A stretch of DNA of 64,000 nt, from the NCBI GenBank assembly GCA_023230925.1, contig JALNWK010000001.1:34781-98780 (forward strand). The letters are read 5' to 3'. The position numbers and the translations under genes are program-made. Source of the DNA: Limnochordia bacterium. Its GTDB lineage: Bacteria; Bacillota; Limnochordia; DUMW01. The notes beneath the pieces were generated by a model. The model was given only the letters and a program-made list of their open reading frames with translations, did no database searches and was not told the DNA's origin. This document shows, piece after piece, positions 33,272-51,212 of the stretch (positions are counted from its first letter, which is position 1; the number at the start of each line of letters is the position of its first letter).

Positions 33272-36079
33272 GTGAAGATTAATAGGATTTATGTGCAGAG
33301 GATCAGTGAGCCCCTACAGGCGCGGTTGAGGGAGACTCTTAATTATAGAGGGTACAACGTTGTGGCTTGTAAGATTGAACGGGTCTATCGGTTAGAGGGC
33401 CAGTTCGATGAGGCCGGGTTAATCGATCTTTTGGTCAACCCAGTCTATGAGACGTGGTCCCCGAAGAGTAAACTTGATCCTGAGGAAGGGCCTATTGTTG
33501 AGATTAGCTATAATCGGGCGGTGATCGATCCGGAGACGATTTCGATTCTAGAGGGTGCTAGGGCCGTTGGCACTGACGGTGTGAAGTGGGCTCGTTTGAA
33601 CTACCGCTATCAGTTTGTGGGAGTGTCTGAGGAAGAGGCAGAGAGGATTGCACAGGATGAATTGTATAATCCTGTTATCCAAAAGATTCTGCGAGAAGAA
33701 TGGGATAGCCTGCTACCGTCGGGGGAGAGCGATCCGGTACGGAAGATCGATTTAAGCAGGTGCTCCGATGAAGAATTGATAAGTATATCCGAGGAAAACT
33801 CATGGTATGCCTCTTTGCAGCAAATGAAGGTACTACAGGAGTATCAGCAGGAATTGGGTCGTCCCTTTACCGATGCAGAAATTGAGATTGTGGTCCAAAG
33901 CTGGAGTGATCATTGCTATCATACCACGTGGAAAGCTTTGGGACTACTCAAGAAGCTAAAGAATGCCACCCTAGCCATAGATCATCCCTTGATGGTGTCG
34001 GTGTTTACAGATAACGCTGGTGGTATGGAATTTTATGATGATTGGGTTGTAACCATTAAAGGCGAGACCCACAATTTTCCAAGTTCTATTTCACCCTTTG
34101 GTGGCGTAGCCACAAAACATGGGGGAGTAATCCGTGATACAGTGGGTTTTGGCAAGGGTGCCTATCCCATCGGTGGTAGCACCATCATGGGTACCATGGA
34201 TCCGAGTACGTTGAAGGGACAAGTTCCTTTAGGAGCCCTGCACCCACGGACAATCCTTAAGGAAGCTATCCGAGCAACGGTATTTTACTGTAATCCTATG
34301 GGTATTCCTATGATGTACAGTGCCTATAGAAAGCATCGAAATTACCCGAAGTGCTTAGCGTTAGGGCATTCGATCGGAATACTGCCCCGAAAATATGCCC
34401 TTAAAGATGAGGTTCAGCCTGGGGATTTGGTAGTACTCCTTGGTGGACGGACGGGCAGGGATGGACTGCATGGTGCAACGGCAAGTTCCGCCACCATGAG
34501 CAGAGAGGTCACAGAAAAAGAGGCCGCGGCAGTGCAGATCGGCGACCCCTTAACCGAAGGCAAGTTTATGGAGGCGATCCCCCAATTGCGCGACGCTGAA
34601 TGTATTCGTGCCATTACCGACTTGGGCGCGGGGGGGATTTCGTGTGGGGCCGGAGAGATGGGTGCAGATACGGGGGTTACTCTAGATTTGGATCAGGTGC
34701 CCTTGAAATATCCAAGTCTGTCCGCTTGGGAGATCCTTCTGTCTGAGTCCCAGGAGCGTATGTTACTTGGAGTGCCCGCCGAAAAGATAGGGCAGGTAGG
34801 GCAGATTTTGAAGAAGTATGATGTAGAAATGTCGGTGATCGGAAAGTTTACGGATACGAACCGTTTTCAAGCTACGTGGCAAGGCCAGACTGTCGTTGAT
34901 ATTGAAATGGACTTTCTATGGGGCAAGTGTCCCATCGAACCAATCAGCATTAAAGAACCACAGCAGAAGCAGACCGAAGAGGATGTGGAGGCACCAACAA
35001 GCCTTGCCCAGGTGAAGAAGTCAATTAAACAGGTGCTATCGCATTACCATTGCTGCGACCAATCGCCCGCTGGATTCCAGTTTGACTCAAGTGCCCAGGG
35101 CAGAACTGTCCTTGGACCCTTTGGGGGACAGACCGGTAGAATGCCCACCGGTGCCTTTGTATCGGCGCCCCTTTGGGGAAAACCCTATGGTGTTGTCAGT
35201 ACGTTGGCGTATAACCCCTTTTATGGTGATGTGGATCCTGTGGGGTTGGCCCGACTGATGATGATCGAAGCCATTAGTAAAGCAGTTGCGGTTGGTGCTG
35301 ATCCTGCGGCTATCGCCCTATGCGATAACTTCTACACACCCCGCTGTAACCAAGAGGTTGGTTGGATGCTGAAGGCCATGGTGGAGACCATTTCTGATCT
35401 TTCAGTAAAGCTAAACACCCCATTTATCTCAGGCAAAGACTCAAGTTCCGGTACGTTCGTTTCCAAAGATGGACAAGTCATCGATGTTCCCTATACTTTT
35501 GCAGTGTCGACACTGGGACGGATGCCCGATGTCCGCAAAATGGTAACCAAGGAATTCAAAGGAACAGGAAGCCAAATTGTCCTTGTGGGTACGCTGGATC
35601 CAGAGAAGCTTGGGGGGTCAGTTTACCTCGACTGCTATGGCAAGCGAGGTAATGAACTGGCTGACGTAGCCCATGAACAGATCAGTAGCCTAAGAGAGCT
35701 GTGGGGGACCATTTACCGGACGTATCAAGGGGAGGATAACCCGATTCTTGCAGCAACAGCCATTGGAGAAGGTGGATTGTTCGTTAGGCTCTTTGAAATG
35801 TGTTACGGAGCAGGATGGGGTGCCCAATTGGACCTAGATGCATTACCTGCAGGACGGCTGGACGGGAAGCTATTTAGCGAGGCAGTTGGTGCTTTGTTAG
35901 TGGAGATGCCGACCAGTGTGGATCCTGGAACGGTGTTTTCAGGGTTTCCTTGGCAGGTGATCGGTCAGACCTTGGACGAGCCAGTTATTCAACTACGATT
36001 TGGCTCCGAAAAACTTGATTTACCCATGGATGAGTTAGTCTGCGCCTGGGAGAGTACCTTTAAGGAGATGATCGTGTGA
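33272..36079 (+). CDS. purL: Phosphoribosylformylglycinamidine (FGAM) synthase-like protein with two N-terminal PurS-like domains fused to a small-PurL-type body.
   Basis: Two roughly 65-aa PurS-like repeats (ending LLVNPVYETW and ELYNPVIQKI), then PurL motifs: SDHCYHTTWK, ETHNFPSSISPFGGVATKHGGVIRD, GGRTGRDGLHGAT, VQIGDP, LLSESQERMLL. GTG start with GGAGGAG 8 nt upstream; ATG 33266 is the alternative. Confidence 0.75.
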   Translation: MKINRIYVQRISEPLQARLRETLNYRGYNVVACKIERVYRLEGQFDEAGLIDLLVNPVYETWSPKSKLDPEEGPIVEISYNRAVIDPETISILEGARAVGTDGVKWARLNYRYQFVGVSEEEAERIAQDELYNPVIQKILREEWDSLLPSGESDPVRKIDLSRCSDEELISISEENSWYASLQQMKVLQEYQQELGRPFTDAEIEIVVQSWSDHCYHTTWKALGLLKKLKNATLAIDHPLMVSVFTDNAGGMEFYDDWVVTIKGETHNFPSSISPFGGVATKHGGVIRDTVGFGKGAYPIGGSTIMGTMDPSTLKGQVPLGALHPRTILKEAIRATVFYCNPMGIPMMYSAYRKHRNYPKCLALGHSIGILPRKYALKDEVQPGDLVVLLGGRTGRDGLHGATASSATMSREVTEKEAAAVQIGDPLTEGKFMEAIPQLRDAECIRAITDLGAGGISCGAGEMGADTGVTLDLDQVPLKYPSLSAWEILLSESQERMLLGVPAEKIGQVGQILKKYDVEMSVIGKFTDTNRFQATWQGQTVVDIEMDFLWGKCPIEPISIKEPQQKQTEEDVEAPTSLAQVKKSIKQVLSHYHCCDQSPAGFQFDSSAQGRTVLGPFGGQTGRMPTGAFVSAPLWGKPYGVVSTLAYNPFYGDVDPVGLARLMMIEAISKAVAVGADPAAIALCDNFYTPRCNQEVGWMLKAMVETISDLSVKLNTPFISGKDSSSGTFVSKDGQVIDVPYTFAVSTLGRMPDVRKMVTKEFKGTGSQIVLVGTLDPEKLGGSVYLDCYGKRGNELADVAHEQISSLRELWGTIYRTYQGEDNPILAATAIGEGGLFVRLFEMCYGAGWGAQLDLDALPAGRLDGKLFSEAVGALLVEMPTSVDPGTVFSGFPWQVIGQTLDEPVIQLRFGSEKLDLPMDELVCAWESTFKEMIV

Positions 36080-40157: not shown

Positions 40158-40892
40158 ATGATGAAGGTATCAAGACAGGCACCACAATTTGCCCCTGTAA
40201 GTAAGACTAAGGTCTATGAGCACATTATCTCCCAGATTAAAGAGCTGATCTATACTGGAAAGCTAAAACGAGGTGACAGGTTACCTGCGGAGCGTACGTT
40301 GACCGAACAGCTTCGGGTATCACGGGCATCGGTACGGGAAGCTTTTAGCGCTTTGGAGATGATCGGTCTTATTGAAAGTAAGCCCAGGGATGGTACATAC
40401 ATTGCAGCTAACAGTCAAGGCATGGTGGAGCCCCTTTCGTTAGCGTTCATGCTGCAGGAGAACTTTGAGCCTGCATTTCTCGAGTTTAGACGGATTCTTG
40501 AGGTGGAGGCTGCCAGGCTTGCCGCCACAAGAATAACCCAAGAACGCTTGACGGACCTAACACAGCTAGTAGAGCAGATGGCCCTTGCCGATGAAGCTAA
40601 CAGTATAGAAGCGGATAGACGGTTCCATTACCGTCTGAGTGTGGCTTCGAACAATCCGATTTTAGTGACGGTCCTTGATGCCATTTCCGATGTAATCGAT
40701 CTTAGTATCCGCACCCATCGAGAGAACCTTTTTGCTGATGAACAACTTAAGGAACGGTTAGTGGAACAGCATCGACAGATTCTTGTGGCGGTTAGTCAAA
40801 GGGATCCAGATAATACTGCGGTAGCGGTAGAACGACACTTTCAGTTTGTTGAAGAGCGGATACAGACTCTAGGATGGACTCAAAGGGAATAA
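40158..40892 (+). CDS. GntR/FadR-family transcriptional regulator (FCD domain), LctA-like.
   Basis: GntR winged-HTH segment (LPAERTLTEQLRVSRASVREAFSALE) followed by an FCD-type C-terminus. It sits directly upstream of the etfBA/LDH genes. Confidence 0.8.
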   Translation: MMKVSRQAPQFAPVSKTKVYEHIISQIKELIYTGKLKRGDRLPAERTLTEQLRVSRASVREAFSALEMIGLIESKPRDGTYIAANSQGMVEPLSLAFMLQENFEPAFLEFRRILEVEAARLAATRITQERLTDLTQLVEQMALADEANSIEADRRFHYRLSVASNNPILVTVLDAISDVIDLSIRTHRENLFADEQLKERLVEQHRQILVAVSQRDPDNTAVAVERHFQFVEERIQTLGWTQRE

Positions 40893-40936
40893 TCATATTT
40901 GTGGTCTGACCATCAGGCCAGTCGGAGGTGTACTGC

Positions 40937-41725
40937 TTGAATATCTTAGTATGTATCAAACAGGTTCCCGAGACCAGGGATGTGGAGGTGGATGAGAACA
41001 CCGGTGTTCTAAAGCGTGAGGGTGTTGATAGCAAGATGAACCCCTTTGACCTTTATGCATTAGAGGCAGGGGTACAGCTTAAAGAGCGTTACGGTGGAAA
41101 GGTGACAGTCATTAGTATGGGTCCTCCCCAAGCCGCTGCAGTGCTCAAAGAAGCGTACATGATGGGGGCTGATGCAGGTATACTCATGTCGGATCGAAAA
41201 TTTGCTGGTGCGGATACATTGGCAACTGCCTTTACTTTAGCTCAGGGGATTGGACGAAGTGGCAGCTTTGATCTAATCCTGTGTGGCAAACAGACCACCG
41301 ATGGGGATACTGCCCAAGTTGGTCCGGGCATCGCGGAATTTTTGGACTTACCCCATGTATCCTATGTTAGCTCTATCCTTGCTCTTGATGCTGATTACAT
41401 AACCGTGGAAAAGGACCTTACCGATGGCATTCAGGTCTGCCGAGTGCATTTACCCTGCTTACTTACCCTGATGGAAACAGCAAACCAACCGAGACTTCCT
41501 TCCTATAGGTTGAGACTTGCCACCTCAGGGCGTCCTATCGAGGTGGTAAGTTATAAGGATTTACCTCCTGTGAAAACAGAATACTACGGTCTAGACGGTT
41601 CACCCACCCAAGTGGAACGGATCTTCCCTCCCGAGAGCCACCGGGATAGGATTGTTTATCACGGAGAACCCGACGAGATCGCAAACCAGCTATACGTACA
41701 ACTCAAAGAACATAGATTCATCTAA
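40937..41725 (+). CDS. etfB: Electron transfer flavoprotein beta subunit.
   Basis: LNILVCIKQVPET...NPFD...G start typical of EtfB. TTG 40937 with GGAGG 8 nt upstream. Confidence 0.85.
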   Translation: MNILVCIKQVPETRDVEVDENTGVLKREGVDSKMNPFDLYALEAGVQLKERYGGKVTVISMGPPQAAAVLKEAYMMGADAGILMSDRKFAGADTLATAFTLAQGIGRSGSFDLILCGKQTTDGDTAQVGPGIAEFLDLPHVSYVSSILALDADYITVEKDLTDGIQVCRVHLPCLLTLMETANQPRLPSYRLRLATSGRPIEVVSYKDLPPVKTEYYGLDGSPTQVERIFPPESHRDRIVYHGEPDEIANQLYVQLKEHRFI

Positions 41726-41738
41726 GGGGGCATCCATT

Positions 41739-42941
41739 GTGCTTCGGGTCAACTACGAAAAGTGTAACCTGTGCGGTCGCTGCATGGAGGTTTGTCCCTT
41801 CGGCGGCATTGGAATAATGGCAGACCAGGTGATCATTAATGAAAAATGCCGGTTGTGCCGACAGTGTATTAAACACTGTCCAACAGGCGCTTTGTCTTTG
41901 TCTAAATCAACTAAGGGCCTAGTTAACGATGCCGAGTGGCAAGGTGTTTTGGTCTTCGCCGAGCAATCGGGTGGTGTGATTCACCCGGTGACTTATGAAT
42001 TGATCGGTAAGGGAAGGGAGCTGGCGAAAAAGCTCGGCCAACCCCTGAACTGTGTTCTTATTGGATACCAGGTGAGGGGTAAAGCTGCTGAGTTGTTGAA
42101 GTACGGGGTAGAAAAGGTCTATGTATATGATTACCCAGAACTTGAATACTACTCCATCGAACCCTTCGCGGCGGCCATCGCCGCAGCCATCGAGAAAACA
42201 CAACCCAACATCCTTTTGATTGGCGCTACCTCCATCGGCAGGTCCCTGGCGCCACGGTTGGCTGTGCGTTTTAGGACAGGCTTAACAGCCGATTGTACTG
42301 TTTTGGATGTTAAAGAAAACGGTGACCTGATACAGATTCGTCCGGCTTTTGGGGGGAACATTATGGCGCAAATTGTCACTCCCCACCACCGACCACAGAT
42401 GGCTACAGTCCGGTATAAGGTGATGGAACCGGCCAAGGCAGACTCATGTTCCAAAGGAGAAGTGGTTTCCTGCTTCATTAACCAAAGTAAACTTGCTTCA
42501 CGGGTTACGGTCCTCCAAGCAACACCCAAGCCGGAGGAGGCGAGCATTACTGATGCAGAGGTTATTGTGGCAGTGGGAAGGGGTATTCGCACCGAAGGGG
42601 ATCTCAATCTGGCCTTGGAGTTGGCCCACCTTTTAGGGGGGCAGCTTGGTGCTACCCGACCATTGATTGAGTGTGGATGGCTACCGTATACCCGTCAAAT
42701 TGGCCTTAGTGGGCGTACGGTAAGGCCGAAGCTCTTGATTGCTTGCGGCATTTCCGGGGCCGTGCAGTTCGTAGCGGGGATGTCCAATGCCGAGCAGATC
42801 TACGCCATCAATTCGGATCCCAATGCCCCCATCTTTAACGTGGCAACCCATGCTATTATCGGTGATCTTTACCAAGTTATACCAAGGCTAATTCAATTGA
42901 TTAAAGGAGAGGGTATCCGTGTCTTGGAAGAAGTTAACTGA
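41739..42941 (+). CDS. etfA: Electron transfer flavoprotein alpha subunit with an N-terminal 2x[4Fe-4S] ferredoxin domain.
   Basis: [12 protein letters not shown] and [12 protein letters not shown] cluster motifs, then the EtfA body with FAD-binding C-terminus ([17 protein letters not shown]). GTG start with AAGGGGG upstream. Confidence 0.85.
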
Positions 42942-44310
42942 AGAAGATCTAGCCAGGCTAAGGGAAATATGTGCTCCCGAGCGTGTTTTCGTTAACGAAG
43001 ACATCAACGAGGATTACGCCCATGATGAGTTAGCTGAAGTACGGTCTTTTCCGGAGGTATTGGTGGAACCTCTAACCACTGAGGAAGTAGCCGAGCTCAT
43101 GACATACGCCTATGAAAACAACATTCCCGTTACTCCCCGGGGTGCGGGCACGGGGTTATGCGGTGGAGCTGTTCCAATTCACGGTGGCATATTGCTTTCC
43201 ACAACAAAGATGAATAGCATCATCGAAATAGACGAAGCTAATCTAACAGCTACGGTACAGCCGGGGATTCTCCTCATGGAGTTTCGGGATGTGGTGGAGG
43301 AAAGAGGGTTGTTCTACCCACCGGACCCGGGGGAAAAAAGCGCTACAATCGGTGGTAATATCATGACCAACGCAGGTGGTATGCGCGCAGTTAAGTACGG
43401 TGTTACCAGAGACTATGTCTTAGGTCTTGAAGTGGTATTACCTACGGGAAGGATCATACGAACTGGTGGCAAGATCGTAAAGAACAGTTCTGGGTACAGT
43501 CTCCACAATCTGTTAATCGGTTCCGAGGGGACCCTTGGGATTATCACGGAAGTGATCCTCAAGTTGCTGCCCAAACCCAAGAAACAGATTAGCCTTCTTA
43601 TTCCCTTCGAAAACCTTAATTTAGCCATTAGCACAGTGCCAAAGATCATCCAGTCAAAAGTTATTCCCACAGCCATTGAATTTATGCAGCAGGATGTGAT
43701 TCTTGCCGCCGAGGAGTACCTAGGTAAGCGTTTCCCAGACAAATCTGCGACGGCCTATTTACTTTTGGCCTTTGATGGTAATTCCAATGAAGAACTAGAA
43801 TCGGTATATGAACTAGTGGCCGACATTGCCCTAGTCTCCGGAGCCCAAGATGTTCTAATCGCGGATAGTACTGAACGACAGGAACTAATTTGGGAGGCCC
43901 GGGGGGCATTTTTAGAGGCCCTAAAGGCCATGAGCGATATGGACGAAGTTGATGTAGTGGTGCCCAGGGACAAAATTGCGGAATTTGTTGCCTACACGAA
44001 TAAGCTTGCTGAGGAAAGCGAGATTCGTATACTTAGTTTTGGTCACGCAGGTGATGGTAATCTGCACGTATATATCCTCAGAGACGATCTACCCGAACAG
44101 GTTTGGCGTCCACAGATGGAGCAGTTAATGAAGAAGATGTACGATCATGCCAAGGAGCTAGGTGGCCAAGTCTCCGGTGAACACGGTATTGGTTATGCAA
44201 AACGTAGGTACTTGGAGGATTCATTGGGAACGGTGCAAATTGAGCTGATGCAAGGGATTAAAAGGGCCTTCGATCCCAAGGGTATTCTCAATCCAAGTAA
44301 AGTAATCTGA
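42919..44310 (+). CDS. FAD-binding oxidoreductase of the GlcD / D-lactate dehydrogenase family (LctD-like).
   Basis: FAD-binding PCMH domain ([13 protein letters not shown]) and a C-terminal 4-type domain. Overlaps etfA by 23 nt. Confidence 0.85.
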
Positions 44311-44341: not shown

Positions 44342-45463
44342 TTACATGCATCCGGTACACACGGCGGGGAGGCGTTTCGTTGGGTATCTAAAACATTTAC
44401 CCTCATAGTTCTGCAAAATAAGCTCTGTGGGGGTCTCTTTGATGATGCGCTGGGGTTCTAAGGGGATTTTGCCTCCACCACCGGGAGCATCAATCACAAA
44501 TCTAGGAACAGCAAAACCTGTGGTCCGCCCCTGTAATTCCTTGATGATGTTAATACCAACCTGGGGTGGGGTACGGAAATGCTCTATCCCGGATACTAAA
44601 TCGCACTGATAAAGATAGTAAGGATAGACCTTCATACGAACAAGTTGCCTTACTAGCTCCTGTTGGATCTTTGTGGAGTCATTAATACCAGCAAGTAGCA
44701 CCGTTTGGTTAAGCACTGGTATACCGTGGTCGATGAGAAGACTACAGGCCTGTTTTGCTTCTTCGGTGATCTCCTTTGGATGGTTGAAATGGGTACTAAT
44801 CCATAAAGAACGATGACGGCGGAGGATGTCCACTAGATCCTGGGTAATCCGAAAAGGGTTTGTGACTGGAGTTCGGGTACCAATACGCAGGATCTCAACA
44901 TGAGGAACTGAATCAATCACATTGAGAATATTGGCCAAGCGGGCGTCGGAAAGACAAAGGGGATCTCCCCCGGAGATTAGCACATCACGTATTTTGTGTG
45001 TCTCCAAGTAATCCCTAATCCGAGCCAAATCTTCATCGGCGATGGTGACGTTTTCCAAGCCTACTCGTCGCCGTCGGGTGCAGTGTCGACAGTAAGTGGC
45101 GCACAGATGGGTAGCCATAATCAGGACCCGATCTGGATAACGGTGCACCAGAAAGGGGATGGGAGACTGAGTTTCCTCAGCGAGGGAATCGATGTTCTCA
45201 AAGGAATAGGAGATCATTTCTTCGGGTAAGGGGATGGCTTGACGACGAATCGGGCAGGAAGGATCCTTCGGGTCACACAATGAAGCATAGTAAGGCGTAA
45301 CTGCAGTAGGAAGCCCAATGTTTTCACATCTAAGGGCAGTCCTTTCCTGACAGGTAAGCTCAATCACCGGGCAAAAATCCCCTTCGGTCCTTAGACGGTG
45401 GCGTAGTTGCCATTGCCAATCGGTCCACTCTACACTCTGGCTATGTTTCACGGCTGTCCTCAA
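44342..45463 (-). CDS. KamA-family radical SAM aminomutase (lysine 2,3-aminomutase-like, EpmB-sized).
   Basis: CATYCRHCTRRR radical-SAM CxxxCxxC motif with KamA-family flanks and a PLP-binding-like region. At 373 aa it is shorter than canonical KamA. Confidence 0.8.
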   Translation of the reverse strand: MRTAVKHSQSVEWTDWQWQLRHRLRTEGDFCPVIELTCQERTALRCENIGLPTAVTPYYASLCDPKDPSCPIRRQAIPLPEEMISYSFENIDSLAEETQSPIPFLVHRYPDRVLIMATHLCATYCRHCTRRRRVGLENVTIADEDLARIRDYLETHKIRDVLISGGDPLCLSDARLANILNVIDSVPHVEILRIGTRTPVTNPFRITQDLVDILRRHRSLWISTHFNHPKEITEEAKQACSLLIDHGIPVLNQTVLLAGINDSTKIQQELVRQLVRMKVYPYYLYQCDLVSGIEHFRTPPQVGINIIKELQGRTTGFAVPRFVIDAPGGGGKIPLEPQRIIKETPTELILQNYEGKCFRYPTKRLPAVCTGCM

Positions 45464-46887
45464 CTCCTTATATCAGTTGACATCACCGTACTTGCCGTCA
45501 TGACGGCATCAGTCATACCATGGATGATCTTCTTATCACTAGGACAAAGGGTAGCCAAGACCCCAGCCAGCTGGACTGTATCGCCCAGGACAAAGTAGTA
45601 AGGACACAGTCTAGCCCTAGCGACCATGGTCTCCTGTTTTTGTCGACCAAAGTCATAATACGCGATCTTGAACTTTTTGCCTTTATGGAACTCTTGGAGG
45701 ATGTGCGGCGTATCTCCAAAAGCCTTCAGGGCATCATCTATTGCATCAGACCACTCTTCGTTATTAACATCATTTCCCACTACTACTCCCCGACTGCCCC
45801 AGGCCAATTCAGAGAAACCGGAAGGTTTGATCACGAAGTTCCGCTGGCGCCTTGACGCCCCTTTTAACTCGGACCAGTGGGCTAGGGCTTGCCCGTTTAG
45901 GGTTAGTCCTGGAATGACTGCATAGTTAGGTAATGGTGTTGGGTCCAGGATCCATGTCTTAGGAAACACCCGATTTAGTAAGGACAAGTGTTCCCCTTTT
46001 AGGTTGGAGTGCCAGAAGGAGGAGAGTCGAGGATTGTGGAATAGCCCCATGATTAATTTCTCCTCGAGATAGCTTTTGAGGGGTGGGGTGATGCGCAGCA
46101 ATTCCTTGCGAATAGCATAAAGCACCAAGTCTATCTTGGGGATATTTGGTAGATCGAATAGTTCAAAGAAACGATAGAGAACATCCACGCGCTCATCGTA
46201 CGCATACAGTCCTGATTCCTGGAAGATGAGATCCCTAGGATGCACTTGGTGAGTACGTAATCCCCTCTCTGTTAAACGCTCTGCAAGCCAACACATTTCC
46301 GGTTGGTAATCCTGTGACTCATCGGAGACAGCAATGGCCACCACGGGCTCTTCCTGATCCGCTACATGCTTTAGAGATTCCCTAAAGGAGTCAATCATCC
46401 CATAGGGCCCCCCTATTACATCATAGCCTAGGGTGCTATAGGCATGATTCAGAGCCGCCAGAAGACCCATTCCTCCAGGGACTGCATCAAGCTCGGTGAT
46501 GACAAAACCTGTCTCAGTGGGGATAATATCAGGACGTATGACCAAAGGCAGGTCATGCCGAAATCGATTCATACGACCGTAATTGATTACCCGTTCCGTT
46601 TTCCCCAAATTGAGGTAATCTGTAACCCAGCGCAGATGCTCATTGGTTCTACTGCGTCTATACAAAGTGTTGGTTGCCCGGTAAAAGTCTAACAGGGCCG
46701 GACCTAGCTTATGGAGAAACTCAAAAGTAGCAGGATCAAGGGAAAAGGGAGTTGGCGATATGCGAAAAGGTGCCTGACCTGGTGCCGCACCAGAATCCGT
46801 TGGAAACACTTGTGCCTTGGTTAGTTTTTCACTAATATGCCAACAGTTCGTGTGAATACTATCTCTATTATGTATCAAGTCGCTCAC
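45460..46887 (-). CDS. Uncharacterised 475-aa protein with a C-terminal ATP-grasp-like nucleotide-binding segment, possibly a circularly permuted ATP-grasp amide ligase.
   Basis: C-terminal RNFVIKPSGFSELAWGSRGVVVG, then LQEFHKGKKFKIAYY, then an R-x-R segment. This resembles the Lys-loop and E-x-hydrophobic blocks of ATP-grasp enzymes, but only about 75 aa follow, so the usual Mg-binding part would have to lie N-terminally. Its stop overlaps the kamA-like start as ATGA. Confidence 0.45.
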   Translation of the reverse strand: MSDLIHNRDSIHTNCWHISEKLTKAQVFPTDSGAAPGQAPFRISPTPFSLDPATFEFLHKLGPALLDFYRATNTLYRRSRTNEHLRWVTDYLNLGKTERVINYGRMNRFRHDLPLVIRPDIIPTETGFVITELDAVPGGMGLLAALNHAYSTLGYDVIGGPYGMIDSFRESLKHVADQEEPVVAIAVSDESQDYQPEMCWLAERLTERGLRTHQVHPRDLIFQESGLYAYDERVDVLYRFFELFDLPNIPKIDLVLYAIRKELLRITPPLKSYLEEKLIMGLFHNPRLSSFWHSNLKGEHLSLLNRVFPKTWILDPTPLPNYAVIPGLTLNGQALAHWSELKGASRRQRNFVIKPSGFSELAWGSRGVVVGNDVNNEEWSDAIDDALKAFGDTPHILQEFHKGKKFKIAYYDFGRQKQETMVARARLCPYYFVLGDTVQLAGVLATLCPSDKKIIHGMTDAVMTASTVMSTDIRS

Positions 46888-46952
46888 CCAATAGCTTGAG
46901 GTTATGCAAGATTATATCATTCATACGCCAAAGTAGCAAGGCGAAGACAAGC

Positions 46953-47939
46953 CTACAGACGCAAGCAGGATTTGCGTTCGATCAAGTGGGGGCGAATCTT
47001 CGTGCATCTGGGGACTCGCTTGCCATTGAACTGGGCCTGCAACGTATCCCAAACGATTTTGCCCAGATGCTCCGCTGGGATCCGAATCGTAGTTAAAGGC
47101 GGTTCATAGCAGCCCATCAATGGGGAATCGTTAAACCCAATTACCGACACCTGATCAGGGACGACGAACCCATGTTCCCTAAGCATCTTGATTAATGCTA
47201 CGGCAATCTGGTCACTGGCAGCAATGAACGCGGTGGGGAGAGGCCTAAAAGCGAAGATCTGCTCTTCATAGGGGGCCAACTCCGTATCGATATTGGGCCA
47301 ACCGGCTAACTCCACAGGACCAATCAAAGGAAGATTGGCTGCTTGCATAGCCTTCTTGTAACCGAGCCATCGCTGTTCCCCCGGACCACTTTCCCGTGTG
47401 CCGATATAGCATATGCGGGTATGGCCAAGCCCAATAAGGTACTCGGTAGCCATGTAGCCGCCTTCGCAATCATCGAAGATCACCCGGGGAAAGGGTGCCT
47501 CCTGATCACAGTCCACCAATACGATGGGGCATCCTAGATCTTCTTCGTAATTTAGGAACATCTCATATTGCTTGGAGGAGGCAAAGGCGATGACACCATC
47601 AATGAAACCAGTCCGGCTTTGTCGGGGTATGGAGTTAAGTAAAATGATACTCACGCTGTAATCATCCTGCTTGGCACGTTCACAAATATTGATCAGCAGA
47701 CGATGAATTACATCGTTTGCCAGTACCCCGAAGGTCTCCACAGCAAACCCGATGTTGTTACTACGAGCTAATGCCAAGTTCTGCGCGTTGCGGTTTGGAA
47801 CATAGCCCAACCGACTGCATGTTGCTGCGACCTTTCGTCTTGTCTCAGGGGAGACTTGTTTGCCGCTGAGTGCCCTTGAGACGGTGGCCTGGGACAACCC
47901 CAGTATTTCTGCAACTTCCCGTTGATTGATCTTGCTCAT
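46953..47939 (-). CDS. LacI-family transcriptional regulator.
   Basis: HTH MSKINQREVAEILGLSQATVSRAL followed by a periplasmic-binding-protein-like sugar-binding core. Confidence 0.85.
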   Translation of the reverse strand: MSKINQREVAEILGLSQATVSRALSGKQVSPETRRKVAATCSRLGYVPNRNAQNLALARSNNIGFAVETFGVLANDVIHRLLINICERAKQDDYSVSIILLNSIPRQSRTGFIDGVIAFASSKQYEMFLNYEEDLGCPIVLVDCDQEAPFPRVIFDDCEGGYMATEYLIGLGHTRICYIGTRESGPGEQRWLGYKKAMQAANLPLIGPVELAGWPNIDTELAPYEEQIFAFRPLPTAFIAASDQIAVALIKMLREHGFVVPDQVSVIGFNDSPLMGCYEPPLTTIRIPAEHLGKIVWDTLQAQFNGKRVPRCTKIRPHLIERKSCLRL

Positions 47940-48049
47940 CCTACTTGCTCTCTCTCCCAATCGTTGTTTCTTCTTTTATAGTACCAAAAACCATCATAAA
48001 TTGCATCAATATTCTGATGTGGGCCACAGCCCACACCAGAATGTATTGC

Positions 48050-49735
48050 TTATTCCTTAACTAGTTGGAAGTAATCAAGGTTGAGGTAGTCTCTCTCCAC
48101 GGCGATCTTGATAGTGTGTTTACCAGCCGTTAGCGGAATACCACTCTTGACTGTAAACAGGTCGTATCTGTTCCAGTCGTTATATCCTGGAAATACGTAT
48201 AGAAACTCCTGTTCATTATCGATGGTAAAGATCCTTCCAGCATCGGACCAGGTGGAAGCAAATACATATAGCGTATAGTTGCCTGCCTGTCCTTGGGGAA
48301 TAGTAAACTCGTATTCGTAAAATCCATTGTTCCAACCGTGGGTGATTACGTTATCATCCATGCTTGGGGCGCCGTCACCGTGTCTGATGGCATTTTCAGC
48401 ACCAACTTTAACGGAAAAACTGGATTGGGCTATTTCGCTTGCCTTTTCCGCTGCCTTCATGCCGAAGGGGTCCTTCCATCCATCGTCCAAGGCTTTTTGG
48501 GCATTTTGCGCCGCTTGGGCCAGGACTTCGTCCGGGGATTTATCCCCTTGGGCAATGGCACCATCCACACCAAAAATGGCTCCATAGAACGCGTCGCCGA
48601 AGGGTGTAACAGGACGGAAGGTCGTGTAGTCCATGAGGTACACAAAGGTTTCCATTTCGGGGACTGCACTAAGGAACTCATAGGATGTTGCCGCGGAGCG
48701 TAGGGCAGGCAGCCATCCTTGGGAGCCGATTCCAAGGGTGACTTGGGCCTCGTGACTGGTATAGAACTTGATGAATTCCCATGCTGCTTCCAGTTCCTCA
48801 TCGGAGATCCCTGTGGGTATGGCAAAGGCATGACCACCGGACCAGGTAATTGGTGTGTCCTCAAGACCTGCCGGACGGGGTGGAGGAGCTACACGCCATT
48901 CTAGACCGGGGTTCTCATCGAGTACAGGACCAGCAAAGAAACAGCCGTCGATTACCATGCCTGCGGAGCCGCCGATGAAACCACCGCCAGCATCCCATGC
49001 TGCACCAATGACCCCATCTCCTCCGTATCGACTAATGAAATCAGCCAGCCAGTTTACGGCTTTACGTCCCGCGGGACTGTTGATTAGTGCTGTTTGCCCG
49101 GATTCATCAAGGACCTCACCGCCAGCGGCCCATAGCCATCCTAGGAATGACCAGTTGCCCCGGGTGGGGCTAAAGCCAACGCGTTTTAGCTCACTGCCAT
49201 CATAGAAGTCTAATTTCTTACTGTATTCCTCTAAGTCTTCCCAAGTTTTTGGTGGTTTGCGCGGGTCTAGACCACAGGCGTGGAAAAGATCTACATTGTA
49301 GTATAAAGCACGGTCGTCAATGGTCCAGGGAATAGCATAGACTTTCCCATCGAACATACTCTCAGCTGTTGCTGCTGGATAGAACTCATCGAAAGCAAGT
49401 CCATCACGCTCAATAAGTCCATCCAGAGGCTGGAGCAGACCCATAAGGGCGTAGGCCCCCAGCTGATAGCGGTCGATCTTGACCACGGTGGGAGGCACAC
49501 CACCTGCAACTGCAACCGGCAACTTCTCCCGGACCTCCAGCTCATTGCCAATGACTTTGTAAACACCTTCGTACTCTTCGTTAAACTGTGTGATCAAGGG
49601 GGTCTCCACATTCTTTCCGGAAATACCGCCCCAAGTTCCCCAGTATTCAATGATAATGGGCTCTGCATACACGTAACTGGTTACCATTAGGATTGATGCG
49701 ATCGCGACTAGAAAGAAAGTTTGCAGTCTCTTCAT
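48050..49735 (-). CDS. Extracellular solute-binding protein (sugar ABC family 1) fused to a C-terminal CBM6/CBM35-like carbohydrate-binding module.
   Basis: Signal peptide MKRLQTFFLVAIASILMVTSYVYA with no lipobox Cys. An SBP_bac_1-like body of about 430 aa. The C-terminal roughly 130 aa (GNYTLYVFASTW...KSGIPLTAGKHTIKIA...LNLDYFQL) resemble a CBM6-type beta-sandwich. RBS AGGAGG upstream. Confidence 0.7.
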   Translation of the reverse strand: MKRLQTFFLVAIASILMVTSYVYAEPIIIEYWGTWGGISGKNVETPLITQFNEEYEGVYKVIGNELEVREKLPVAVAGGVPPTVVKIDRYQLGAYALMGLLQPLDGLIERDGLAFDEFYPAATAESMFDGKVYAIPWTIDDRALYYNVDLFHACGLDPRKPPKTWEDLEEYSKKLDFYDGSELKRVGFSPTRGNWSFLGWLWAAGGEVLDESGQTALINSPAGRKAVNWLADFISRYGGDGVIGAAWDAGGGFIGGSAGMVIDGCFFAGPVLDENPGLEWRVAPPPRPAGLEDTPITWSGGHAFAIPTGISDEELEAAWEFIKFYTSHEAQVTLGIGSQGWLPALRSAATSYEFLSAVPEMETFVYLMDYTTFRPVTPFGDAFYGAIFGVDGAIAQGDKSPDEVLAQAAQNAQKALDDGWKDPFGMKAAEKASEIAQSSFSVKVGAENAIRHGDGAPSMDDNVITHGWNNGFYEYEFTIPQGQAGNYTLYVFASTWSDAGRIFTIDNEQEFLYVFPGYNDWNRYDLFTVKSGIPLTAGKHTIKIAVERDYLNLDYFQLVKE

Positions 49736-49824
49736 GATTCTTACACTCCTCCTCATTCTTAGTCTTGATTACCTACCCCAAATGATTAGATTTAGATAGC
49801 CTCCTCCTTCCATAGTACGAGCTG

Positions 49825-50922
49825 TCATTTAGCGGGAACCAACTGTGCAGCTAGATTGAGAGTCATTACCGCCGAGGCATTTTCCAGGCTTTCAATACGG
49901 CTTTCTTTAGGGGGTCCGGCCCATCCTGAACCGAATAACCCTTGGGAATTGCGGCTCTTGTTCCAGATCGACTCTGCATTCTTCAAAACGAAATCCACAT
50001 ACTTCTCTGGATGGGGGTCCACCCTAATTAGTTCCACCAGATAGCGGATGCAAATTCCTTTAAACCCACCGCCATCCCCGGTTCCGTCTTCCTTAAAGAT
50101 GCCGTTGGTATTTGTCAAGTACTGCATTGAAGCATCAGCCACAAGCCGGGCGTCCTCTAAGTAATGCTCTTCTCCGGTAAGCTTGTATAGCCATACAGCG
50201 GCTCCAATGAAGGTACCTTGGTTATACGTAAAGGTCCAGTAATTAACCCCTGCCTTTGTTACATGGTCCCAAATCAGGCCCTTGGGAGAGAGTAAATTAG
50301 CACGAACCCACTTGTATAGGTCAATGGCCATTAGTAGATCCGTAGGATCCTGGTTGATCTCATACATGCGAGCAGCAATTATTGCCGCAGGGCAATTGAT
50401 ACAGGCGTTCTTCTCTGTCTTTCGATCCTTTCGCCACCATATACCTCCACCAAAGTCCTCTGTCCATCCATTCTTGATGTCACTCCACAGAGAGTTGGCC
50501 ATTCGTAGGTATTTCTGATTGTTAGTGATTTTATAGGCGCGGATGCATCCTAGTGCCCACCACGCTTCATCGTCATAGAATTGGTTCCTGAAGGTGGGAG
50601 TACGGCTACGTTGTCCGGCGTATACCCGTTCCATTATTTCTAGCCACTTTTCATTTTTTCCCTCAGTTCGTTCTACCCCATCCATGACAGCATCCCACAC
50701 TTGGGCGAGCCACCAAAAGTCCGTCCAACCTGAACGGTCGCTATACTTGTGGAAATGCAGTTGTTCATCATTCCAAAACCCGTCGATCATAGCATCGAGA
50801 GCCTCGTCGGCCGCTTGATGCAAATACTCCATGTCCCTTCCCTCCGTCGGTACGGGCAAGCCCATTGAGGCTATCCCGCAGATGATTAGAGCTAAGACCA
50901 TAGCTTTGTTAATGAGCGACAA
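49825..50922 (-). CDS. Glycoside hydrolase family 76 (alpha-1,6-mannanase-like).
   Basis: YDDEAWWALGCIRAY, GGGIWW and NACINCPAAI motifs characteristic of GH76. TTG start with GGAGGAGGAG RBS. N-terminal signal MSLINKAMVLALIICG, possibly a lipoprotein. Confidence 0.7.
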   Translation of the reverse strand: MSLINKAMVLALIICGIASMGLPVPTEGRDMEYLHQAADEALDAMIDGFWNDEQLHFHKYSDRSGWTDFWWLAQVWDAVMDGVERTEGKNEKWLEIMERVYAGQRSRTPTFRNQFYDDEAWWALGCIRAYKITNNQKYLRMANSLWSDIKNGWTEDFGGGIWWRKDRKTEKNACINCPAAIIAARMYEINQDPTDLLMAIDLYKWVRANLLSPKGLIWDHVTKAGVNYWTFTYNQGTFIGAAVWLYKLTGEEHYLEDARLVADASMQYLTNTNGIFKEDGTGDGGGFKGICIRYLVELIRVDPHPEKYVDFVLKNAESIWNKSRNSQGLFGSGWAGPPKESRIESLENASAVMTLNLAAQLVPAK

Positions 50923-51212
50923 TACTCCTCCTCCTTTGTAGTGAAGTGTTCTTAAACGTTCACATGGTATACGTATAAATCGCATCATGTACTAAGTCCT
51001 AATAAGTGTATTCGTGATTTGGAAGACATATTCCTTCTTGTAAACGCAGGAACCTTGGATACGCATACATAAATGTCCAGGCGCTTGCCTAAGCATAGCC
51101 AAACCTCGAACAATAAAGAAACGACATCGGTCATAACAAGCCCCACATAATAAGGGGTTGATGTCACTCACGAAGCCAAAACAGTGGATATATGTATATT
51201 ACCCCCCTAGGA

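Follow-up and report, generated by a model that had tools for sequence, protein, structure and literature searches.

In the 64,000-nucleotide stretch of a Limnochordia bacterium genome analyzed here (positions 34,781 to 98,780 of contig JALNWK010000001.1, assembly GCA_023230925.1; hereafter the window), two minus-strand genes follow each other closely (Table 1). The downstream gene encodes a radical S-adenosylmethionine (SAM) protein of the KamA family, predicted to be a lysine 2,3-aminomutase (LAM). The upstream gene encodes a protein, called X in the following, that matches no named sequence family and is predicted to be a ligase of the ATP-grasp type. The pair recurs in several phyla, and we suggest that it forms a two-gene operon that makes and uses beta-lysine: KamA would make the beta-amino acid, and X would ligate it, in an ATP-dependent reaction, to a partner. 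We put the probability of this reading at slightly better than one in two.

Table 1. Features of the X-KamA locus, in window positions (aa, amino acids; nt, nucleotides; hGSS, human glutathione synthetase; PLP, pyridoxal phosphate)
Feature	Position	Strand	Remarks
Gene X	45460..46887	-	475-aa open reading frame, GTG start
KamA-family radical SAM/PLP lysine 2,3-aminomutase (predicted)	44342..45463	-	373 aa from TTG 45463; more probably 369 aa from GTG 45451
X/KamA junction	45449..45469	-	AAGGAG 45469-45464; TTG 45463-45461 overlapping X stop TGA 45462-45460; GAGG 45461-45458; GTG 45451-45449; read directly
CxxxCxxC of KamA (CATYCRHC; C121, C125, C128)	45080..45103	-	radical SAM [4Fe-4S] cluster ligands; R130 (LAM R134) next
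KamA region with D288 (LAM D293), D325 (LAM D330) and K332 (LAM K337, PLP lysine)	44468..44602	-	lysine epsilon-ammonium pocket and cofactor site, from the 2A5H alignment
R118-P119-D120 of X	46528..46536	-	family-invariant; proposed equivalent of hGSS R125-S-D127 and Cp1B R139-x-D141
E132-L133-D134 of X	46486..46494	-	family-invariant; proposed Mg/ATP-site pair; counterparts would be hGSS E144-x-N146 and Cp1B E163-x-N165
V352-V368 of X (VIKPSGFSELAWGSRGV)	45784..45834	-	putative phosphate-binding Lys K354 and glycine/serine-rich loop
Q398-E399-F400 of X	45688..45696	-	adenine-hinge-like ILQEF; Q398 invariant; aligns with YgiC IVQQFH
Promoter-like TTGCTA-17 nt-TATAAT with TG extension	46911..46939	-	10/12 consensus matches; 24 nt upstream of the X start

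The two genes were originally described as overlapping in an ATGA tetranucleotide (45460-45463). The minus-strand bases 45463-45460 read TTGA, so that an overlap needs the rare TTG as start codon. GTG 45451 is the likelier start of KamA, judging from the sequence: a GAGG comes before it at a spacing of 6 nt and an AAGGAG at 12 nt, and the identical public protein of a Limnochordia metagenome-assembled genome (MAG; P0121) is annotated with the 369 amino acids that fit this start. It leaves a gap of 8 nt between the TGA of X and KamA, and the gap is 4-44 nt in related Bacillota loci, so the operon reading stands despite the lack of an ATGA overlap. For X, the public annotation takes TTG at codon 4 as start, which gives 472 amino acids. 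Because the 65-nt gap between X and the lacI-family gene upstream holds a promoter-like site, X-KamA probably has its own promoter, and transcripts may also read through from lacI; the site is a consensus match only, and such sites are not in excess across the region as a whole. No lysine riboswitch or other Rfam match was found near X in the window and in six Bacillota loci.

The CATYCRHC motif had originally suggested a KamA-family enzyme, and the family model TIGR00238 bears this out (318 bits versus a cut-off of 199.2), as do matches to the Pfam families LAM_C and Radical_SAM; the assignment can now be sharpened to the lysine type. The protein aligns with the LAM structure of Clostridium subterminale (2A5H) over 353 residues with 395 bits. 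Residues C125/C129/C132, R134, D293, D330 and K337 of LAM are kept in the window KamA and in every X-linked KamA examined, the equivalents of the last four (R130, D288, D325 and K332) are conserved in 50 of the 50 LAM-like sequences compared, and the LAM active-site residues are also kept in eight further homologues from other contexts, including Poribacteria, Omnitrophota and Desulfuromonas. D293 and D330 of LAM hold the epsilon-ammonium group of lysine; glutamate 2,3-aminomutases reportedly have Lys and Asn in their place.

Among the equivalog models, AblA fits the window KamA best, by about 65 bits (454.5 bits, versus 388.5 for the glutamate, 362.8 for the arginine and 221.3 for the EpmB model), with all four scores below the respective cut-offs (525.4, 650, 600 and 369.3). 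The match to the AblA model, TIGR03820, stops at model position 364 of 417, and the window KamA is without the C-terminal ~45 residues and CxCxxC region of Clostridium LAM and without its zinc-site Cys268, which is replaced by Ser. We attribute the shortfall to this missing tail and zinc site; an X-linked sibling KamA (P0133) reaches 516.8 bits with the same model. In a neighbor-joining tree, the X-linked KamAs form two groups and are intermixed with AblB-linked LAMs, which nest beside the Bacillota group, and EpmB is a distant outgroup. By its sequence, the 373-amino-acid protein is a lysine-type 2,3-aminomutase, with conversion of L-lysine to beta-lysine as its predicted activity. Its description as EpmB-sized in the original prediction was loose: an open reading frame of 373 codons exists, but the start used here is probably that of a 369-amino-acid protein, and E. 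coli EpmB has 342 amino acids (Clostridium LAM has 416).

X gave no Pfam or NCBIfam match at E ≤ 10, a profile search of PDB sequences and PADLOC returned nothing significant, and its database homologues are all "hypothetical proteins". The CP_ATPgrasp and GSP-synthetase families had been proposed as the ones to search, and X is not a sequence-level member of them: it lies below every Pfam threshold, and only 3 of 32 relatives have sub-threshold matches to GSP_synth or CP_ATPgrasp_2 (E 0.028, 0.049). A Histone_HNS match in 19 of the 32 members (best E 0.0022) is probably spurious and may stem from a short AWGSRG-type motif. The family is large and well conserved. It comprises at least 7998 clusters at 90% identity and, at 50% identity, 410, 1037 or 1809 clusters for E ≤ 1e-30, 1e-10 or 1e-3; it is present in at least 594 species-representative genomes, and its members are 47-68% identical across phyla, with a mean column identity of 55%.

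An AlphaFold2 model of X built from 32 sequences is confident (predicted local distance difference test score, pLDDT, 90.2; predicted template modeling score, pTM, 0.91) and has the fold of the circularly permuted ATP-grasp clade, in agreement with the permuted or atypical ATP-grasp suggested before. Foldseek comparison with the PDB (E 6e-15 to 1e-9, template modeling score 0.62-0.67, up to 0.66 when normalized by query length) matched approximately the whole chain to glutathione synthetase from potato, human and yeast, soybean homoglutathione synthetase, the fungal E-64 ligase Cp1B, 3N6X (CP_ATPgrasp_2), E. coli YjfC and YgiC, and glutathionylspermidine synthetase (GspS). Throughout the catalytic region, the model shares the fold of eukaryotic glutathione synthetase (GSS) and of the synthetase domain of GspS. 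By this model, X is a new sequence family inside the GSS/GspS structural clade and outside every defined family.

The motifs that had drawn attention to X, FVIKPSGFSELAWGSRGVVVG (residues 351-371) and ILQEFHKG (396-403), are indeed present, both in the C-terminal quarter of the protein. K354, S356, G357 and G367 of the lysine loop are invariant in the family, and the loop aligns with VVKPIFSRE of YgiC and VLKPQ of hGSS in hhalign comparisons that are statistically insignificant: the X profile reached probabilities of 0.7-1.4% when compared with E. coli YgiC, with human GSS and with an alignment of four GSS sequences. The insignificant alignment with the four GSS sequences (0.8%) is yet collinear across 282 columns and pairs R118/D120, E132/D134 and K354 of X with R125/D127, E144/N146 and K364 of hGSS, which come in the same order and at comparable distances. 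E132-x-D134 lies N-terminal to the K354 loop and to Q398-E-F, with the hGSS equivalence taken from the 0.8% alignment only. An acidic pair before the lysine loop is the permuted order that distinguishes the GSS/GspS clade from classical ATP-grasps. Because the profile links are insignificant, the mapping of catalytic residues in X rests on motif order and fold, not on superposition. In Cp1B, whose nearest folds are homoglutathione synthetase and the peptide-spermidine ligases YgiC and YjfC, the conserved residues R139, D141, E163 and N165 surround the nucleotide, and mutagenesis showed them to be essential (PMC12568646). By analogy with such enzymes, X is predicted to be an ATP-dependent carboxylate-amine ligase of the glutathione-synthetase/glutathionylspermidine-synthetase branch of ATP-grasp.

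Genomic context ties X to the aminomutase. The X profile was used to fetch 80 genome loci, three of which end too early to judge, and a KamA homologue lies downstream of X on the same strand in 52 of the 77 evaluable ones: 43 of 43 in Nitrospirota, 3 of 3 in Nitrospinota, 3 of 3 in Chloroflexota and 3 of 5 in Bacillota, as compared to 0 of 23 in Latescibacterota, Poribacteria, Eremiobacterota, Dormibacterota, Sericytochromatia and Gemmatimonadota taken together. The flanking genes are otherwise unrelated between phyla, so the X-KamA order is not simple synteny. Conversely, of the relatives closest to the window KamA, three (P0123, P0133 and P0136) were looked up, and each is directly preceded by an X homologue (50-53% identity). 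Chance would not give a pairing of this frequency. The pairing thus recurs beyond the source genome, namely in Nitrospirota, Nitrospinota, Chloroflexota and several lineages of Bacillota, and the literature searched held no description of it, in keeping with the original view that it is not a described system. The KamA-less X loci have no consistent alternative partner; the neighbors there include 3-deoxy-D-arabino-heptulosonate 7-phosphate (DAHP) synthase, isopropylmalate synthase, an ABC permease, PhoU, a LarE-like protein and deformylase. X proteins from KamA-linked and unlinked genomes have 64 invariant residues in common and no non-conservative column that discriminates between them, just a conservative R/K at position 110, which argues for a single function.

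In Nitrospirota and Nitrospinota, a glutaredoxin- or GST_N_3-like protein of 80-110 amino acids is encoded between X and KamA in 41 loci (cluster c4; for example L052:9473-9739). It has conserved W-C-P-[ED]-C, GQYYVPVL and TET motifs, and in a subset the C-terminus is extended and ends in HPSCRIN. The protein is not found in the Bacillota or Chloroflexota versions of the cassette, nor in the window. It may serve to reduce the radical SAM enzyme in aerobes; alternatively, it may be a sign of thiol chemistry. We also considered it as an acceptor of the LysW or ubiquitin type and rejected this, as its C-terminus lacks a conserved Gly or Glu.

Together, these data suggest the following model. KamA would use its radical SAM and PLP chemistry, as expected from its family, to convert L-lysine to beta-lysine (3,6-diaminohexanoate). 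X would, by analogy with its structural relatives, phosphorylate a carboxylate to an acyl-phosphate, and attack by an amine would then give an amide. The conserved gene order suggests that the beta-lysine from KamA would be one of the two substrates of X. Enzymes of the clade typically add a small cationic amine or a beta-amine to an acidic acceptor, spermidine in the case of GspS and YgiC. The nucleophile of homoglutathione synthetase is the beta-amino acid beta-alanine (PMC12568646). X has many invariant acidic residues, among them E190, E197, E242, D245, E275, E276, D315 and D373, and together with the beta-alanine and spermidine additions of its relatives they make us lean toward beta-lysine as the amine nucleophile, which would be joined to a carboxylate. 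The precedent of PylB and PylC, in which the carboxylate of the mutase product is activated, keeps the opposite polarity open: X may activate beta-lysine's own carboxylate, as PylC does with 3-methylornithine. In either case the product would be a beta-lysine amide, more likely as a small metabolite than as a modification of a protein, and X would be a functional counterpart of AblB, which acetylates beta-lysine, and of EpmA, which beta-lysylates a protein. The original idea that an aminomutase and an ATP-grasp-type ligase cooperate to form a beta-amino-acyl conjugate is supported, as the fold and the co-occurrence, the two points on which it could have failed, both hold, but beta-lysine as a substrate of X is still something that we infer.

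Aminomutases of this type have several kinds of partner. LAM homologues that are 52-58% identical to the X-linked KamAs occur in three other contexts. They lie next to AblB in Clostridium taeniosporum and Acetivibrio (TIGR03827, 274.8 and 284.5 bits), in a lysine-fermentation cluster (Kdd-KamA-KamDE-Kce) or adjoining a KamB-like gene, and, in the third context, downstream of two tandem Ddl-like classical ATP-grasps. The last arrangement, with the tandem genes directly upstream of an AblA-grade LAM, is present in two Omnitrophota MAGs (L088:3002-6188 and L104:1970-5260) and in the cultured Desulfuromonas carbonis (L107:3449-7086, CP015080.1, 2.52 Mb), where a 156-amino-acid GNAT protein is encoded between the ATP-grasps and LAM. 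The tandem ATP-grasps score 190-195 bits with the Ddl model (cut-off 243) and are unrelated to X; we found no description of such a cassette. In the neighbor-joining tree, the type of partner does not follow KamA phylogeny, as one would expect of an aminomutase reaction that stays the same while the tailoring that follows it differs. That LAM has recurrently recruited ATP-grasps, from two unrelated lineages, speaks for beta-lysine as a ligase substrate.

Comparison with known systems shows what would be familiar in the X-KamA pair and what would not. AblA and AblB also form a two-gene cassette that makes beta-lysine and then an amide of it, the product being the osmolyte N-epsilon-acetyl-beta-lysine. 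AblA is of the same aminomutase type as the window KamA (it is the best model), and the Bacillota relatives of the window KamA group with AblB-linked LAMs of Clostridium and Acetivibrio. In contrast to AblB, however, X is not a GNAT protein, amide formation would depend on ATP and an acyl-phosphate instead of acetyl-CoA, and the two genes stand in the opposite order, the ligase gene coming first. No AblB is encoded next to the window KamA, which is flanked by X and a convergent flavin adenine dinucleotide (FAD) oxidase, or in the X-linked loci inspected. EpmB and EpmA resemble the proposed pair in that beta-lysine from a KamA-family aminomutase goes to an ATP-dependent ligase of its own. EpmA, however, is a paralogue of class II aminoacyl-tRNA synthetases that forms an adenylate and not an ATP-grasp enzyme, the window KamA fails the EpmB model (TIGR03821), and there is no linkage to efp, the gene for elongation factor P (EF-P).

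Unlike KamA, PylB of pyrrolysine biosynthesis belongs neither to the KamA family nor to the PLP enzymes; PylC is an ATP-grasp of the classical, Ddl-like kind, and no pylD or pylST genes are present with X-KamA. On the ligase side, glutathione and homoglutathione synthetases (2HGS, 1M0W, 3KAJ) and Cp1B (9CJN) are the best structural matches to X, over nearly the whole chain, and, by the proposed residue mapping, would have the same order of RxD, ExN/D, K-loop and hinge motifs. They differ in that identity with X is 12-15%, with no significant sequence or profile match; as to glutathione synthetase in particular, the residues that bind gamma-Glu-Cys are not recognizable in X, Asn146 corresponds to Asp134, X has no gamma-glutamylcysteine ligase as partner, and its distribution is bacterial. 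From GspS, YgiC, YjfC and the CP_ATPgrasp_2 protein 3N6X, X is set apart by falling below the Pfam thresholds and by being ~90 residues longer than YgiC. We know of no described association of GspS, YgiC or YjfC with KamA.

Several observations weigh against coupling of X to beta-lysine. In X, D134 replaces the canonical Asn, and the insignificance of the profile links to GSS and YgiC counts here as well. As many as 25 of the 77 loci, including all 23 from the six phyla, have no KamA next to X, and the adjacency amounts to about four phyla of independent events rather than 52. A Clostridiales MAG locus (L029, 8001-10121) keeps the MurG-X-Lgt-LeuRS synteny of L007 and L082 but is without KamA, the gap between X and lgt being 30 nt. 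X could hence be a housekeeping-type ligase that is independent of KamA and attaches, for example, alpha-lysine, a polyamine or another amine to a peptide or thiol, with KamA as a lineage-specific neighbor or as an optional supplier of an alternative substrate. Such a role would account for the solitary X genes among unrelated housekeeping genes in these six phyla and for the otherwise syntenic L029, and it agrees with the unusual conservation of X irrespective of linkage, with the thiol chemistry hinted at by the CPxC protein of the 41 loci and known from structural relatives of X, and with a divergent subfamily (28-32% identity) that has no KamA neighbor. It does not explain why the order X-then-KamA is kept in four deeply separated phyla with different flanks, or why the pair is also recovered starting from KamA, and neither glutamate-cysteine ligase nor a polyamine gene is a conserved neighbor. 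Moreover, some "unlinked" genomes appear to retain both genes. The nearest relatives of the Chloroflexota X-linked KamA (59-64% identity) include many Poribacteria proteins, and a 6,153,064-bp Poribacteria chromosome with an unlinked X (L063) appears to carry a same-clade KamA ~0.87 Mb away; this genome-wide co-occurrence was checked in one unlinked genome, whose two records were joined by equal length, not by shared sequence. On balance, we regard a KamA-independent X as rather unlikely.

The remaining alternatives keep the link between the two proteins and change either the acceptor or the amino acid. X might be a protein-modifying ligase that puts beta-lysine onto a lysine or carboxylate of a conserved protein; it would then be the ATP-grasp counterpart of EpmA, which acts on EF-P, or of enzymes of the RimK/TTL type. 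EF-P beta-lysylation by EpmA and EpmB is the one known bacterial housekeeping use of beta-lysine, and the very high conservation of X across phyla would suit a macromolecular partner. However, no efp was present in ~100 loci or in the 64-kb window, while epmB of E. coli abuts efp; KamA scores far below the EpmB cut-off, and a long distance separates the two in the tree; the close structural relatives of X all act on small molecules or short peptides; and the glutaredoxin-like protein has no conserved C-terminus that would fit an acceptor. Protein modification therefore strikes us as improbable. It also seems very improbable that KamA acts on glutamate, arginine or ornithine and that X ligates the corresponding beta-amino acid. 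Although the window KamA stays below the AblA, glutamate and arginine cut-offs and has lost the C-terminal ~45 residues and the zinc-site Cys268, both D293 and D330 are conserved in all X-linked members, and the AblA model leads with a shortfall that the tail explains and that nearly vanishes in the sibling P0133; arginine and ornithine are remote candidates. A beta-lysine operon thus remains our preferred reading.

Further observations concern relatives of the two genes and their surroundings. Four KamA-family homologues, P0442, P0457 and P0469 (513-516 amino acids) and P0392 (563 amino acids), exceed the usual length by 130-200 residues; only LAM_C and Radical_SAM are annotated in these long proteins, one of which is from Candidatus Syntrophoarchaeum, and they may be fusions with an unrecognized domain. 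The unlinked Poribacteria KamA (351 amino acids; L106:5428-8965, at 1.39 Mb of the chromosome) starts 1 base after the stop codon of a cyclophilin-type peptidyl-prolyl isomerase gene and is followed by CTP synthase; there are many near-identical KamAs of 351 amino acids, on contigs of 6-7 Mb. The divergent X-like subfamily (L093-L100, metagenome contigs) retains the RPD, ExE, KPSGF and QEF motifs. Judged by eye, a 145-amino-acid HAD-like gene is translationally coupled downstream in 4 loci, an upstream gene in 2 loci resembles aspartate/ornithine carbamoyltransferase, and L093 is also near dapA- and asd-like genes; the context of this subfamily gave no clue to the function of X.

In Nitrospiraceae, a protein of 500 amino acids that combines CxxCxxCC (PF03692) with LPG_synthase_C/DUF2156, and is MprF- or aminoacyl-transferase-like, is encoded divergently upstream of X (cluster c12; L024:6312-7817, minus strand, and ~24 other Nitrospirota loci). 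This may be mere lineage synteny, although the link to lysine transfer is curious. A dCTP-deaminase-like gene (DCD_N and DCD_C, ~385 amino acids) follows KamA in 35 Nitrospirota loci (cluster c5; for example L040:3132-4289); after it come a small membrane protein and two proteins of ~250 amino acids that, by eye, are family-2 glycosyltransferase-like and DUF2064-like. In "Candidatus Wallacebacter cryptica", a group II intron (RF00029, RF02001, with an RVT_1/GIIM open reading frame; L082:8413-10421, minus strand) lies ~2 kb downstream of X-KamA-lgt. In the window itself, genes upstream on the same strand (46953-50988) putatively encode, as assigned by eye, a LacI-family regulator, a sugar-binding lipoprotein-like protein of 568 amino acids and a GH76-like glycosidase. 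On the plus strand (40158-44310), a GntR-family regulator, the electron transfer flavoprotein (Etf) subunits EtfB and EtfA (EtfA begins with a ferredoxin domain) and an FAD-linked oxidase were recognized in the same way. This cluster converges on the KamA stop codon with a 31-nt gap, resembles a lactate dehydrogenase/Etf module and appears unrelated to X-KamA.

In bacteria and archaea, beta-lysine has few known fates. It is acetylated to give an osmolyte, used to modify EF-P, fermented, or built into a few antibiotics. ATP-grasp-type ligation is a candidate for a further fate. The literature searched does not describe the ligase family, its pairing with LAM or the presumed product, while both enzyme classes and the logic of an aminomutase with a tailoring enzyme are already known. 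The X family, which is named in no protein database, adds a bacterial branch to the sequence space of the glutathione-synthetase fold. The cassette is present in all 46 evaluable Nitrospirota and Nitrospinota loci, including those of the nitrite oxidizers Nitrospira and Nitrospina, which are of global importance, and its presence in every such locus points to an undescribed metabolite or modification in heavily studied organisms. We tentatively suggest, at less than even odds, that X and LAM make a new beta-lysine amide (a beta-lysyl peptide, a thiol analogue or an osmolyte) that would belong to the core physiology of nitrite-oxidizing Nitrospirota and Nitrospinota; the cassette is also present in Chloroflexota and Limnochordia-type Bacillota. 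If this is true, then X-KamA and the cassettes of two Ddl-like ATP-grasps with LAM would together represent a hidden family of ATP-grasp-built beta-lysine compounds.

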